Source: a virus (Duplodnaviria; Heunggongvirae; Uroviricota; Caudoviricetes). From it: a stretch of DNA of 7,785 bases. The DNA lies in IMG/VR virus record IMGVR_UViG_2703718848_000004; one strand, 5' to 3'. Below the pieces are notes generated by a model. It did not search any database. It saw nothing but the letters and a program-made list of their open reading frames with translations, and was not told the DNA's origin. Positions 129 to 7,400 of the stretch are shown here, one piece after another. The first letter of the stretch is position 1, and each line of letters starts with the position of its first letter. Made by a program: the position numbers and the translations under genes.

Positions 129-466
129 CAGATCACCACTTCGTCAAACTGACACGAAAAATCGGTATAGGTGATATGTTCTGTCGCTGACCACGTTCGA
201 CACACCACTCTGATTTTTCTGTTAATACCCGGCGGGCGCCAAAAAAAAGATTTATAGCCTTCATGCCGGGCTAAAAATTTTTCAAATGAATCACGTTCAT
301 TCGCCTCAACTTTGAAATCACAGGTGAAAACGCGCAGAGAATGATTAAGTCCATTTGGACTTCGTTGCTCATAACCATCGCCAAATCTTACAGTTTTTAT
401 CGATGGTTTATTTTCTGTTTTCATTCCATCCTCTGGTAACCAGTGAAATTCTTCCGTATTAGCCAC
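128..466 (-). CDS. M: minor tail protein M
   Basis: 112-aa ORF. The segment [35 protein letters not shown] and the C-terminal FDEVVI align with lambda M (FRWKVKPGM...VRKVRFGDGYSQRAPAGLN...FEQVVN, from memory). The start is GTG at 466..464, directly after an in-frame TAA, with a GGGGGA Shine-Dalgarno 7 nt upstream. It overlaps the end of the tape measure gene by 8 nt and the start of L by ATGA. Confidence 0.9.
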
Positions 467-3400
467 TTAACATTCCCCCATCACGTCGCATATTTAACAG
501 ATTGCCCTGCACCCGCTGATCAACCATCCCCATAAGTGCTTTTATTGCCTGAGGGCCAATCTCTCCATTCTGGCCGTCATTTTGAATAGTGATTTGGTAT
601 ACAGGGGCATAGGTAATATCTCCGCCTCCATTACCACTTTTACTATTAATAGCTCTGACACCAAGAGAACCATCGGAAGTTCGTGTTAATGGCATAATGG
701 CTTCCGGACCAGCCTCACCAAAAACACCAGCCCCTCTTGCAAAAGCAAAAAATTGCGGGGAATCATAAATACCGTTCGAATACGTGTTCAATGACGGAGA
801 CTCATAAACACCGCCCTTTGCATTCGGAATAAATTTACTAATAGCACTCCCGATAGTTCCTAAAATCCCCCCAGAAGAACTGTTACTAATGCTGTCGAAA
901 ATCCCAGTAATTGAAGCCTTTAATGCTATTCGACTAAGATCCGAAATCACGGAAGTAGCGAAAGAACGAAAATTTGCCTTGCCTGTCGTGACAAAATCAC
1001 CCAACGCATCGGTCATTCCATCAAACATCTGAGTCGTGGTTGATTTTATCTGCTCACTGATATCCTTAGTGTCATCCAGCCAGTTATTGAATCCCTGGGA
1101 GGCACCACTAACCCAGTCTCCTGCCTGAATATCGAGCTGCTCGTTTTTCTGTCTGACAATTTCTTTTTCTCGTTCCAGAGCATCATTCAGAGCCTGCATT
1201 TTCTCCTGAAAAACATGATTTGACATCCCACGGGATTTATCTGCATAGTCACGTTCAAGTTGCAGACGCTGATTGTTATATTCACGTTCAATCCGCAGTA
1301 ATTCCTGCTGGCGTTGCTGATTTTTATCGCCAACCCCATAACCAGCAATCTGAATATCATACCCCTGTTGACGATTATCAATCGAAGCCTGCAATGAATC
1401 ACGCCATGCAGCTATTTCGGCGGATTCCTTGATTAGCCTGTTATTTTTTTCAATCGCAACATTTTTCTCCATCAACGCGGTTATTTCTTCCCGGTGTAAG
1501 AGAAGCGATTTCTGATCCTGGGTTAATTTCGATGACGGTCGTGACTCCAGGTCGGCAATCTGCTGACGCCACTTAACCAGTTCCTGTTCAGAGGAACTTA
1601 ATTTAACGGTTAATTCAGTTTGTGAACTTAGTAACGCATTCTGTTGATTCAGATGATCAATCATTCGTTGGGCAGCATCATCCGAATAACCTTTCGCCTT
1701 TGGTTGCTTTGGATCTTTATAACGCTCATTTATTTGAGCGATAAAATTATTATATTCTTCCTTTGAATACTGACTCTTTAGCTTTTCCAGTTTTGCAAGT
1801 TCACTAGCTCTCTGCTGCTCCCGGGTCTGATATTGTTTTGAAAAGGCATCTGCTCTCTGTCTGAGTTCAATTCCTTCCTGTTGTCGCTTGTTGTAATCGT
1901 TTATTGATGAATTTAGGACGTCCTGAGCAATTTTTTCTGCTTGAAGTACGCCCAATTGCTGCTTTAATCGTGCCAGCCTTTTATTTTGAGCTCCGCCATC
2001 TCCAATGCCACCTAACCCGGAAACTCCGGGTCGGGTATTTTTTTCTATTTCATCAATTTGACGGAGAACATCTGAGATTTTTTGATCAAGGGAGGCCTCA
2101 CGGCCAATATCCAGCATGGAATCCCATGCCCATTTTGCGGAGTCTGCGACAGCTTTCCATGCAGTCTCAAGATAACCAAGATTTTCTTTAATCTGGTTGG
2201 TGCGCTGGATCATTGAGGATGAGTATGCTTCTGTCGCAATGCGGGCGGCCTCCTGCTGGTTCCCTTCATCCTGTAGCGCCTTAATCTGGTTATAAGTCGC
2301 AATTGTCAGAAAATGGTACTGATCATTAAGTTTTGATATGGCACTGACAGGATCCTTTGCAATTTCATTGAAGTCATTAACCAGTTGTTCGGTTGATATT
2401 CCTGTTACTTCGCTCGTTTTTACTATCGCTGTCGTCACTTGCTCCAGCGAACTGCTCGCTACCTTTCCCGAACGCACAAGCTGGTTTAATACTGCCGCCG
2501 CAGCGCCAGTTGTCGAATCAGCCGCATTCCCGGCACGTTGAGCTATATCGGCCAATTGCCCGCTGGTTGTCCCCAACTGATTTCCGGTAAGAATAAGAGA
2601 TTTATTAAATTCGTCCTGCTCCTGAGAGCCTTTATAGTAAGCCAGCCCTAAGACGCCAACGGCTGCTGCGGCCAGGGTAAAAGGATTAATTAATCCCAGC
2701 ACATAAGAACCAACACCTTTGATCGCCGGGCCAATCCCACCGAACATATCTTTTAGCTGGCCGCCCTGCTGCATTAACACCATAAAAGGCGACTGACCAG
2801 TGGACAACCCAACAACAATATCCGTTATTTGTGCAGGCAACATGCGCATAGCAAAAGCCGTTTGTTTTGCCGACATTCCGGTTTTGCTTAATTGAGATTG
2901 AGTAACCTCAAGCTCACTCCGCATAGCACGAAGTTTTCCAGAAAGTTCCTCATACATTTCAGGAGAGAGCATCCCCTTAGCTTTTGCTTCATTGAGCTGT
3001 TTCTGTTGTTCTACCAGACGATTAAAAGCAGTTCCGACAGGGTCAAGTTGAGCAATCAGACGTTGCAAAGCAGCAACCTGTTCATCATGCGCTTTTGCTG
3101 CTTCTCGCTCTGCCTGAGCCTCTCCGGTAAGCTCTCGCCGTGTTTCCTGTATTTTTCGGCTATAATTCTCAAACTGAGAACCATTTATTTTCCCGGATGC
3201 AAACGCAGCATTAAGTTCATCCTGCTGTTGTTCAAGATTTCTTAGCGCCGCAACCAGAGGGTCGATCTTGTCCAGCATTCTTTGAAAGGCCTGAGCCTGC
3301 GATTCCTGCTGGGCGGCAGCAAGTTTTCCGGCCTTCTCGGCTTCTCTCTGCGCTTGCGCAACCCCGCTCAATTCCTCTGTGGTTTCATTAAGTTTACGGA

Positions 3401-3664
3401 CAAGAAATTCATATTCTTCTTTATCAATAAGCCCTTTATCGAAAAATTTCTTTAATTCAGANNNNNNNNNNNNNNNNNNNNNNNNNNNNNNNNNNNNNNN
3501 NNNNNNNNNNNNNNNNNNNNNNNNNNNGTCACTTTCCCTGCGCTATTTGCAGCAGTTTCCCCGGCCTGCGTCATTTTGACTAATGAGGAGGTCAGATTGT
3601 CAGCATTATTTTTTGCTCCAGTGCTATCAATAATTATTGCGAGACGCGAGGTTTGCTCTGCCAT
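459..3664 (-). CDS. H: tail tape measure protein (lambda H-like), interrupted by an assembly gap
   Basis: The 970-aa ORF 459..3371 stays open upstream to the N-run by hand translation (the listed start at 3371 is an internal TTG). A 45-codon N-terminal piece, [20 protein letters not shown]..., begins at ATG 3664..3662 on the far side of the gap. The protein carries lambda H-like motifs ([41 protein letters not shown] versus lambda [40 protein letters not shown]), a long Q/E/K/R-rich coiled-coil-like region, a hydrophobic segment and a lambda-like C-terminus ([16 protein letters not shown]...RRDGGMLSG). It sits immediately upstream of M. Confidence 0.9.
3462..3527. other. run of 66 N (assembly gap or masked bases) inside the tape measure gene
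   Basis: Contiguous N characters. The open reading frames on either side are in different phases (end coordinates 3371 and 3664 differ mod 3), so the N count probably does not equal the true missing length. Confidence 0.95.
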
Positions 3665-3680
3665 TTATTAAAACTCCAGA

Positions 3681-3708
3681 CAACAAAAAGCCCACCGAAG
3701 TGGGTTTC
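3681..3708 (-). terminator. rho-independent terminator-like hairpin 20 nt upstream of the tape measure start
   Basis: Minus-strand RNA reads GAAACCCAC-UUCG-GUGGGCUUUUUGUUGU: a 5-bp GC-rich stem (CCCAC/GUGGG) closed on a cUUCGg tetraloop, followed by a U-tract. The GGAG Shine-Dalgarno and the ATG of the tape measure gene follow directly. Confidence 0.6.
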
Positions 3709-3827
3709 AGGCGACATAATAGTAGATATAGCGATTACGAGGCCACGCAATGCTTTTCTCCAGGAGCATCATCGATTTAATTAAAGACACCATCACATCT
3801 CTGTAACAGAGTGTACGTAATTAACAA

Positions 3828-4597
3828 CTACACACACTGCTCCTGAAAATACTGGTCATCCAGTGCAAAGATCACTGCTTCAAACTCATCGCGCTCAATC
3901 AATACCGGATGAGTGGCTAAATATTCATTTATCTCTGTCAGAGATAAAGGCAAAGGCACCCCGGTCATTCCAGCATAACGTCGGGCACGGGATATTACCG
4001 AATAGGCGTACAACAATTCCTTAAGCACCGGGTCTATTTCTGGTTCCGGTATCGGTGGCAACCTGAGTTTTTCTCGCTTCCATCTTGCCTTTTCCCCCCT
4101 TTCTCCCCCGAACTCCGATAACCACCGCTGGGCGGCTATGGCTTTTTTATCGTATCCTGCTTCTGCTGCTCTTTACCCTGGGCGATGCTGGCTGCTTCTG
4201 CAAGGATCTGCCAGTACAACTCTGGATTCTGCTTAAGCAGCGCGATCCCTCGTTCTGGCGTATATTCCAGTGCAACCTCAGCACCATTAACCAGTTCACC
4301 AACCCCTTTCCAGTCTTTCAGCAGATAACGAGCAGCATTATCAATGAGTAAATCATCAACAGAATCTACCTCGGAAACCTTTGAAATATCAAACTCCTTC
4401 GTTCCGACGTGCAAACTGGCATCCATTTTCTCAATGTGACGACGGATTAATGCATTACGGGAGCGATACTGATCGTTATCGCTGCTTGCCACCAACAGTT
4501 TTAACCCGTCTACAGGTTTTAAGTCCTTCATTGGCGTAAACCAGCGTTCTCCACCGATGATAATTTTCTGATTAAGAATAAACATCCATAACCTCAT
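3828..4597 (-). CDS. tail assembly chaperone G-T fusion, made by a programmed -1 ribosomal frameshift
   Basis: The 77-aa ORF 3828..4061 is in the -1 frame relative to the 153-aa ORF 4136..4597 (its listed start is an internal TTG). Hand translation shows its frame open upstream through the end of G. A slippery heptamer A_AAA_AAG lies 1 codon before the G stop, giving ...QDTIKK|AIAAQRWLSEFGGERGEKARWKREKLRLPPIPEPEIDPV.... This is the conserved G/GT arrangement upstream of the tape measure gene. Confidence 0.75.
4136..4597 (-). CDS. tail assembly chaperone (lambda G analogue), zero-frame product
   Basis: 153-aa ORF directly between the major tail gene and the tape measure gene, ending 2 codons after a slippery site. 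The start is ambiguous: ATG at 4597 (preceded by GGGGGA) or ATG at 4585 (preceded by GAGG), giving MRLWMFILNQ... or MFILNQ.... I see no clear sequence similarity to lambda G; the call rests on position and the frameshift architecture. Confidence 0.75.
   Translation of the reverse strand: MRLWMFILNQKIIIGGERWFTPMKDLKPVDGLKLLVASSDNDQYRSRNALIRRHIEKMDASLHVGTKEFDISKVSEVDSVDDLLIDNAARYLLKDWKGVGELVNGAEVALEYTPERGIALLKQNPELYWQILAEAASIAQGKEQQKQDTIKKP
4142..4148 (-). other. -1 frameshift slippery heptamer A_AAA_AAG
   Basis: Plus strand is ctttttt at 4142..4148, so the mRNA reads A AAA AAG with AAA and AAG in the G zero frame (ATA AAA AAG CCA TAG). After a -1 slip the reading continues GCC ATA GCC GCC CAG... 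into the T frame. Confidence 0.7.
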
Positions 4598-4606
4598 TCA
4601 ATGCGT

Positions 4607-4633
4607 CCCCCTGTAGTGCAGTACCACAGGGGG
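4607..4633 (-). promoter_or_regulatory. GC-rich hairpin between the major tail gene and the chaperone gene, overlapping the chaperone ribosome-binding site
   Basis: A perfect 8-bp inverted repeat, ccccctgt (4607..4614) and acaggggg (4626..4633), plus about 3 more inner pairs and a 3-nt loop. On the mRNA the 3' arm ACAGGGGG holds the G-run that is the only Shine-Dalgarno-like element upstream of the 4597 ATG. No U-tract follows. Confidence 0.5.
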
Positions 4634-7186: not shown

Positions 7187-7363
7187 TTACTCCTGAGTTT
7201 TCCAGCCCATAGCCTTCCAGTTGTCAACTTCATCAGGATGAACATTAGCGATAGTTGGTGCGCCGGGAAACATCTGATAATCGGTCACCATAACCACTAA
7301 CTCAATTTGCGTTTTTTGTGCGGCTTCACGCTGTGCTCTTTGCTCTTTAGTTAATCCGGCCAT
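7187..7363 (-). CDS. candidate small ORF (58 aa) of unknown function, not in the supplied ORF track
   Basis: Hand translation from ATG 7363..7361 to TAA 7189..7187 gives MAGLTKEQRAQREAAQKTQIELVVMVTDYQMFPGAPTIANVHPDEVDNWKAMGWKTQE. It fills a gap of about 220 bp that is otherwise non-coding. A G-run sits just upstream of the ATG. The stop is 3 nt before the next gene's start and the AGGAG of that gene lies inside the ORF's last codons. Confidence 0.4.
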   Translation of the reverse strand: MAGLTKEQRAQREAAQKTQIELVVMVTDYQMFPGAPTIANVHPDEVDNWKAMGWKTQE

Positions 7364-7372
7364 ATGCCCCCC

Positions 7373-7400
7373 ATTAAAAATGGGGCCGAAGCCCCGTTTG
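7373..7400 (-). terminator. rho-independent terminator-like hairpin directly after the probable capsid gene
   Basis: Minus-strand RNA reads CAAACGGGGC-UUCG-GCCCCAUUUUUAAU: a 5-bp G/C stem on a cUUCGg tetraloop followed by a U-tract, starting 6 nt after the TAA stop at 7408..7406. Confidence 0.6.

Follow-up and report, generated by a model that had tools for sequence, protein, structure and literature searches.

A probable resident terminator before the tail tape-measure gene, at the edge of a variable cargo slot in a family of phage tail modules

The stretch of DNA analysed here (the window) comprises 7,785 nt of a Caudoviricetes virus record (IMGVR_UViG_2703718848_000004), and all of its genes lie on the minus strand. 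Their order is that of a RefSeq-annotated E. coli prophage, in which a P22-type capsid gene, head-tail genes, a tail terminator, a tail tube and YdaY are followed by a small 'hypothetical protein', the tape measure and M/L/K/I/J-like genes. The features around the junction between the tail chaperone and the tape-measure gene (TMP) are as follows.

4585..4136, minus strand: G-type tail assembly chaperone, YdaY-like, 149 aa, from the list of open reading frames, with GAGG 5' of the ATG at 4585
4148..4142, minus strand: slippery heptamer A_AAA_AAG for a -1 frameshift (GT), in frame with G and 7 nt before the G stop
4142..3828, minus strand: T (-1) frame of the GT chaperone, 104 codons plus TAG at 3830..3828, from translation
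3827..3665, minus strand: intergenic spacer of 163 nt between the T stop and the TMP start
3704..3691, minus strand: hairpin core CCCAC (3704..3700)-UUCG (3699..3696)-GUGGG (3695..3691), from a pattern scan and folding
3690..3681, minus strand: U-tract CUUUUUGUUG (C-UUUUU-G-UU-G), directly 3' of the stem
3677..3674, minus strand: Shine-Dalgarno GGAG of TMP, 9 nt before the ATG
3664..459, minus strand: tail tape-measure gene (TMP), ATG at 3664..3662; the RefSeq homologue is a 'phage tail tape measure protein' of 1077 aa

The genes upstream of the spacer have the organisation of a lambda-type G/GT pair: a heptamer near the end of G and a 104-codon -1 frame, both of which are kept in relatives, and a position between the tube and TMP genes. 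The RefSeq name of the G homologue is 'protein YdaY', and a Pfam search with the G protein returned no family; an alternative ATG for G is present at 4597. The T frame gave a weak match to Phage_TAC_18 (E = 6e-4, below the cutoff), and the T frames of 12 genome loci are 55-99% identical to that of the window. The heptamer is of the E. coli dnaX type and occurs at the same place in the Klebsiella, Citrobacter and Dryocola relatives. It precedes the T match by a few bases in Siccibacter and Scandinavium, while Rosenbergiella (L017, near 3994..4000) has lambda's G_GGA_AAG at that place instead. Downstream of the junction, a run of 65 N (3463..3527) interrupts the TMP gene. Because near-identical phage records are 28 bases longer there (1329 vs 1301), this run represents about 93 real bases, so that the TMP gene measures 3234 nt (1077 aa), in agreement with RefSeq.

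The gap between the T stop (3830..3828) and the TMP start (3664) is exactly 163 nt long. A preliminary description of this DNA, made from the letters alone, had reported a 163-bp non-coding gap with an intrinsic terminator near its end, and the positions it gave for the gap and the hairpin are all correct in the sequence. Four of the five pairs in the hairpin core are G-C, and the loop is a c(UUCG)g tetraloop, as that description had it. The stem reaches 3707..3687 by way of A-U pairs, with one A.C mismatch. The hairpin lies just upstream of the GGAG, and 20 nt separate the end of the five-U run from the ATG of TMP. The calculated folding energy is -8.7 kcal/mol (z -1.6), and 16 of 200 shuffled sequences fold as well. 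Moreover, the window as a whole contains 11 terminator-like sites, compared with 7.6 +/- 2.2 in shuffles. Judged by these predictions alone, the hairpin of the window is not beyond chance, and it is the comparison with relatives that settles the matter.

To find relatives, three aligned T frames served as the query against species-representative genomes and IMG/VR, and the T stop and TMP start were then located for each match. The distance between the two ranged from 39 nt to 3.9 kb, with junction lengths of 39, 163-165, 452, 535, 746-796, 985, 1783, 2088, 2311, 2532, 2543 and 3875 nt. The contents of the junctions were as follows.

39 nt, in Scandinavium and five viral contigs (L012, L091, L094-L097): no cargo
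163-165 nt, in Escherichia and Shigella: gene-less spacer
452 nt, in Dryocola: lipoprotein
535 nt, in one viral contig: single ORF of about 120 aa
746-796 nt, in E. coli ETEC1730 and seven IMG/VR viral contigs: Ail/Lom outer-membrane protein
985 nt, in a Klebsiella phage: lipoprotein and Zn-ribbon membrane protein
1783-3875 nt, in Citrobacter, Siccibacter and Rosenbergiella: P22-type antirepressors with Arc-like genes, KilA-N, SocA/Panacea and unknowns

The preliminary description had proposed that an alignment with related prophages would tell whether the spacer is absent, conserved or occupied by a gene. All three states occur: it is absent in the 39-nt junctions, conserved at 163-165 nt and occupied from 452 to 3875 nt. 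Across this tail-module family, the junction between chaperone and tape measure is a recurrent landing site for accessory genes.

The larger cargo regions have some features of their own. Citrobacter sedlakii (L010 4343..8217) and Rosenbergiella (L017 4346..6888) carry an immI-like block within the tail operon, with P22_AR_N, ANT/KilAC, Bro-N and P22_AR_C domains beside small proteins that are Arc/Mnt-like by eye. In Citrobacter pasteurii (L014 5250..6232), a 185-aa protein with a SocA/Panacea domain is followed by an overlapping ORF of 142 aa, and this pair looks like a toxin-antitoxin system of the PanA type. A PADLOC search with ten cargo proteins returned no known defence family, and neither of the two Citrobacter pasteurii slot proteins has a PADLOC match.

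While the cargo varies, the hairpin stays in place. All 15 distinct junction types, which represent eight genera (those named are Escherichia, Klebsiella, Citrobacter, Dryocola, Scandinavium, Siccibacter and Rosenbergiella), have a GC hairpin with a T-run whose end is 20-24 nt upstream of the TMP start. A ribosome-binding motif of the form (A)TG(Y)C(C)GGAG adjoins the U-tract in all relatives. The 45 nt preceding the TMP start contained exactly one terminator-like site at all of the 14 divergent loci, compared with 0.02-0.05 predicted from the density of such sites. The stems change in sequence and remain complementary: CCCAC/GUGGG, CCCGC/GCGGG, CCCGG/CCGGG and CCUCGC/GCGGGG, as well as GCCGC/GCGGC, GGCCGCG/CGCGGCC and GCCCCGC/GCGGGGC.

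Since the loops differ in size, MAFFT alignments put the stems out of register. We therefore used folding of each sequence, an in-register subset and a covariance model instead. In the subset, an alignment of five sequences with equal loop size that was not fitted to the structure, two of the eight pairs were doubly changed, and 92.5% of the cells were paired compared with at most 67% when the alignment was slid. In the covariance-model alignment, six of the eight pairs were doubly changed and 93.6% were paired; none of 500 shuffles reached its covariation score. Its 30 distinct sequences were fitted to the structure itself, and some of them are terminators from within cargo or from the tube|G junction.

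The GC-rich stem-loop on the transcribed strand, the adjoining U-rich tract and the compensatory changes make it very likely that we are dealing with a genuine intrinsic terminator. The preliminary description had called it one from the window alone, and that assignment gains from the conserved position and the compensatory stem changes in relatives. The terminator is not peculiar to the 163-nt spacer, since the 39-nt junctions retain both hairpin and U-tract in the absence of cargo and relatives have a second such structure before G. Furthermore, one hairpin lineage (CCUCGC/GCGGGG) was found behind five unrelated upstream sequences. The presence of the hairpin in the 39-nt junctions and the different sequences behind which this lineage occurs imply that it belongs to the tail module, on the TMP side, rather than to the cargo. 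Together with the second terminator before G, the cargo-free junctions mark it as a resident feature of that module, which persists independently of the cargo. In principle, the various hairpin lineages might instead have been brought in by various cassettes and not be related by descent.

We propose, with a probability of roughly 0.7, that the hairpin is a resident Rho-independent terminator of the tail module, held at a fixed distance before the ribosome-binding site of TMP and forming the constant 3' edge of the cargo slot. An intact relative, the Rac-like prophage of E. coli 7/2 (with recET, kilR, sieB and trkG), has a gene for a DUF1133 protein immediately before the lysis genes, and this protein scores 27.4 bits against Phage_antitermQ (Pfam cutoff 26 bits). 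From this Q-like protein it follows that late transcription is probably Q-antiterminated, and it fits the suggestion of the preliminary description that the late operon is read by a Q-type antiterminated polymerase. A polymerase not modified by the Q-like antiterminator would release its transcript in the U-tract, 20 nt short of TMP. A promoter in the cargo, spurious promoters in AT-rich DNA and read-through in the lysogen are possible sources of such polymerases. Release in the U-tract would keep TMP and the tail-tip genes silent. During lytic growth, Q-modified polymerase would read through the hairpin. This role in insulating the lysogen is plausible; termination itself, read-through and any effect on protein ratios are inferred. 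In addition, the hairpin may shield the tube-G-T mRNA at its 3' end or somewhat lower expression downstream. A practical corollary for prophage annotation and the search for cargo genes is to inspect the DNA just upstream of the hairpin that precedes TMP.

Other hairpins in the operon bear on a second reading, which we consider possible though distinctly less probable, namely that the hairpin acts mainly during lytic growth. It would then be a partial terminator or 3' stabiliser in a staircase of such elements after the capsid, tube and GT genes, which would keep the mRNA for capsid, tube and chaperone above that for the few-copy tape measure and tip proteins. The place of the hairpin at the edge of the cargo slot would be of secondary importance, DNA inserted ahead of a resident terminator doing no harm. 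Two further hairpins of the window belong to this argument.

4631..4605, minus strand: strong hairpin between the tail-tube gene and G, without a U-tract in the window allele (-22.2 kcal/mol, z -4.05)
7395..7374, minus strand: GGGGC-UUCG-GCCCC plus AUUUUUAAU, terminator-like, right after the P22-type capsid gene (-11.1 kcal/mol, z -3.4)

The second of these is directly followed by the GGGGGG ribosome-binding site of the next small gene (7363..7187). Hairpins thus placed after the capsid and tube genes of the window are what a staircase would call for, as is the terminator in cargo-free junctions. The same can be said of the strong hairpin with U-tract that relatives have before the ribosome-binding site of G, at a junction without cargo. 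In these relatives (L010 and L013-L015, near 3500..3560), hairpin and U-tract are followed by ATGCAGGAG, directly before G. This arrangement mirrors the one before TMP, and the tube|G junction never holds cargo. In contrast, the hairpin between tube and G in the window lacks a U-tract, and the intact relative encodes a Q-like antiterminator. In lambda, polymerase modified by Q ignores intrinsic terminators. The broader question raised by the locus is whether resident terminators in Q-controlled late operons serve as safe insertion sites or as tuners of tail-protein ratios.

The sequence upstream of the hairpin can be delimited by comparison with the Ail/Lom-carrying allele of ETEC1730 and the seven IMG/VR contigs. 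The two alleles share the flanking T and TMP sequences, with about 83% nucleotide identity where they can be aligned, the same breakpoints, and a terminator before the GGAG. The other allele differs in having a 178-aa Ail/Lom gene behind about 140 nt of AT-rich DNA, and in its hairpin, which is different and stronger (GCCCCGC/GCGGGGC, -18.3 kcal/mol). Homology with it ends inside T after GATGACCAGTAT (3860..3849) and restarts at the U-tract. These breakpoints define the swapped cassette of the window, including the last six T codons.

~3848..3705, minus strand: lineage-specific cassette, comprising the last six T codons, the stop and about 120 nt of orphan AT-rich non-coding DNA, from the breakpoints relative to the Lom allele

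The left breakpoint of the cargo slot lies within T, after ...ALDDQY (3849..3860 in the window; L006 2780..2834). Since the breakpoint is inside T, the last 6-20 residues of GT vary with the cassette (FQEQCV, VSQSKTFDGILIN or a longer tail in Klebsiella). The GC content is 0.40 in the cassette, 0.50 in T and 0.46 in the whole window. Local alignment of the approximately 120 nt with 13 cargo regions of relatives gave scores no better than those of shuffles, and a distant BLAST search of E. coli genomes, phages and plasmids returned the same locus only. The gene-less cassette most likely represents filler or a remnant decayed beyond recognition.

These properties raise the alternative that the terminator was brought in by a moron that later lost its gene by deletion, so that the 163 nt are now a functionless scar. 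We regard this as unlikely. The cassette is indeed AT-rich (0.40 against 0.50) and lineage-specific, its breakpoints are shared with gene-carrying cassettes, and the scans revealed neither an ORF nor a promoter nor an RNA family there. However, it resembles neither the cargo of any relative nor other E. coli, phage or plasmid sequences in the collections searched. Furthermore, the hairpin differs from those of Rosenbergiella and Scandinavium by compensatory changes only, and the Scandinavium junction has no cargo. The preliminary description had itself offered, as its alternative, that the spacer is the scar of a lost or incoming moron cassette. The cassette part of that idea proved the better frame, as the slot is absent, conserved or occupied in different relatives; the notion of a mere scar fares worse, because the terminator is present in cargo-free junctions too.

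Within E. coli the spacer is widespread. At an identity of at least 95% it was found in 1046-1047 of 5426 complete E. coli genomes (~19%), almost always as a single copy. Nine induced E. coli phages have it too, as does one Salmonella phage record. The copy in the Rac prophage of K-12 is the intergenic region between ydaY and ynaA (NC_000913.3 1426289..1426453), with the hairpin at 1426409..1426437. The analysis thereby accounts for a gap that is present, without annotation, in about 19% of the complete genomes of E. coli, the one between ydaY and ynaA in K-12 Rac among them. For this locus, a K-12 table of 3' ends has no entry near 14264xx and TERMITe lists no 3' end; the absence from the table is uninformative, because the Rac tail genes may not be transcribed. 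A search of the literature on ydaY and ynaA found nothing relevant.

Two linked alleles were distinguished, with C3690 and T3678 in the window allele (14 of 73 copies) versus T and A in the other (59 of 73). The loop is 2 nt longer (UUCGCG) in 38 of the 73 copies. The T3690 allele has a stem of 8-9 bp with a predicted energy of -12.5 to -12.8 kcal/mol (z -3.3), whereas that of the window is the weaker one, with a GC core of 5 bp and a C immediately 3' of the stem. The loop-side ACUUCGG of the window allele can alternatively pair with CUGGAGU, which contains the Shine-Dalgarno sequence (-9.0 kcal/mol). Among the 73 E. coli-type copies, variation was mosaic, with five variable sites in 119 nt of spacer versus five in the adjacent 110 nt of T. 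As the adjacent coding DNA is equally invariant, the high identity of the spacer reflects recent common ancestry rather than demonstrable constraint, and variation this mosaic and sparse across 73 copies does not allow selection on the spacer to be inferred.

In K-12 MG1655 (L005 2378..3454), a deletion in Rac fused ynaK to the 5' part of ydaY; some 1.2 kb upstream of the hairpin, on the same strand, there is now trkG, a transcribed moron. At this distance, the hairpin may be the first strong stop for read-through from trkG. In E. coli ET734 (L100 2289..3076), an IS1 is inserted in the spacer, with the last 59 nt before TMP left; the prophage is rearranged, and a second IS1 lies inside the tape-measure gene. 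The one truncated match in the search for the origin of the 120 nt, that of ET734, is this IS1 rearrangement.

The coding content of the spacer is low. The longest ORFs that touch it are two of the minus strand (29 and 38 aa) and two of the plus strand (43 and 47 aa), and only one of the minus-strand candidates lies wholly within it.

3796..3707, minus strand: 29-aa ORF MMVSLIKSMMLLEKSIAWPRNRYIYYYVA, with its stop 2 nt before the hairpin

Direct reading of the sequence in front of this ORF revealed no recognisable Shine-Dalgarno sequence. Natural variants break it: the second-codon ATG at 3791 is lost in 7 of 73 copies, and a variant at 3743 turns Trp18 into a stop. The small-ORF reading of the spacer was therefore rejected. 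None of 40 sampled records, out of the 1046 that matched, has an annotation under the spacer. The statement of the preliminary description that the spacer holds no credible ORF is borne out by these results.

The search for RNA signals gave similar results. A scan for the sigma-70 consensus found no promoter-like site on the minus strand in 3827..3665. The sole match nearby was a weak plus-strand site at 3821..3850, and promoter-like sites were not enriched overall. An Rfam scan of the whole window at E <= 1 gave no match in the spacer, and the fold of the whole spacer (z -1.5) was no better than that of shuffles, so that neither a known family nor a significant structure points to a small regulatory RNA. 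Inverted and direct repeats in the spacer amounted to weak ones with 79% arms only.

These data also bear on the idea that the spacer is a tiny functional gene ending at the terminator, either the 29-aa peptide or an sRNA, the latter independent or cut from the 3' UTR of tube-G-T. It would agree with the identity of at least 95% across 1046 E. coli genomes and with the stop codon 2 nt before the hairpin. Moreover, Hfq-bound sRNAs usually end 3' in a stem-loop with a U tail. We nevertheless consider a tiny gene very unlikely. The ORF has no Shine-Dalgarno sequence and is disrupted at 3791 and 3743 in natural variants, an RNA would have neither a sigma-70-like promoter on the minus strand nor an Rfam match nor a distinctive fold, and the high identity is matched by the adjacent coding DNA, as expected from recent common ancestry. 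The same low probability applies to a prophage regulatory RNA made of the orphan 120 nt and the terminator, derived from the 3' end of tube-G-T or from an unconventional promoter. If this were true, an RNA with a stem-loop and U tail suited to Hfq would be present in roughly one in five E. coli strains, including K-12 in its Rac prophage.

A chance stem-loop without function, as the z-score of -1.6 and the 11 sites versus 7.6 expected in the window might suggest, is very improbable in view of the positional conservation over eight genera, with covariation.

The preferred reading, a resident terminator at the edge of a cargo slot, can be compared with several known systems. In phage T7, T-phi is a Rho-independent terminator located after gene 10, an abundant structural gene. 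Like T-phi, the element of the window combines a hairpin with a U-tract in a long structural operon, downstream of high-copy and upstream of low-copy products. Unlike that of T7, the operon of the window probably depends on the host polymerase in its Q-modified form and not on a polymerase of the phage. Lambda shares with the window the order of tube, G, GT produced by a -1 slippery frameshift, and tape measure. In lambda, however, there is no spacer: T (which ends at 10549) overlaps H (which starts at 10542) by 8 nt, as the preliminary description had anticipated in calling the two essentially adjacent, and this overlap leaves no room for a hairpin between them.

The closest parallel is found in HK97. 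The first element to be called a moron lay between the tail chaperone and tape-measure genes of that phage (PMC3594210), and by gene order the junction of the window is the archetypal moron position. A moron is defined as an extra transcription unit in a phage operon with its own promoter, and HK97 gp15 is a superinfection-exclusion protein (PMC3594210). In the HK97 record, the GT stop is followed by gene 15 ('moron product'), a 'terminator, putative' at 8398..8422 (GACCCGCUAUCAAGCGGGU plus U8) and, 12 nt later, the start of TMP, which is gene 16 of that phage. The two loci therefore agree in their position in the tail operon and in the succession of GT stop, extra DNA, GC hairpin with U-tract, and TMP, although the HK97 hairpin is closer to the TMP start than the 20-24 nt of the window family. 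HK97 further differs in having a real gene (gp15, 62 aa) and, by the definition of a moron, a promoter, whereas the window cassette has neither. Conversely, the window family keeps the terminator without cargo. The capsid and chaperone families differ as well, the window having a P22-type capsid and a YdaY-type G. Of the hallmarks of a moron, the window junction shows extra DNA (163 nt, compared with 39 nt in cargo-free relatives) and a deviant base composition; a gene and, in the scan for the sigma-70 consensus, a promoter of its own are absent. A terminator is present at the cassette, but appears to be part of the tail module rather than of the cassette. With a terminator but neither gene nor promoter, the junction of the window is not itself a moron by the definition of PMC3594210. 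It is rather an element of a known kind, an intrinsic terminator at an HK97-type cargo slot, and does not represent a new kind of element.
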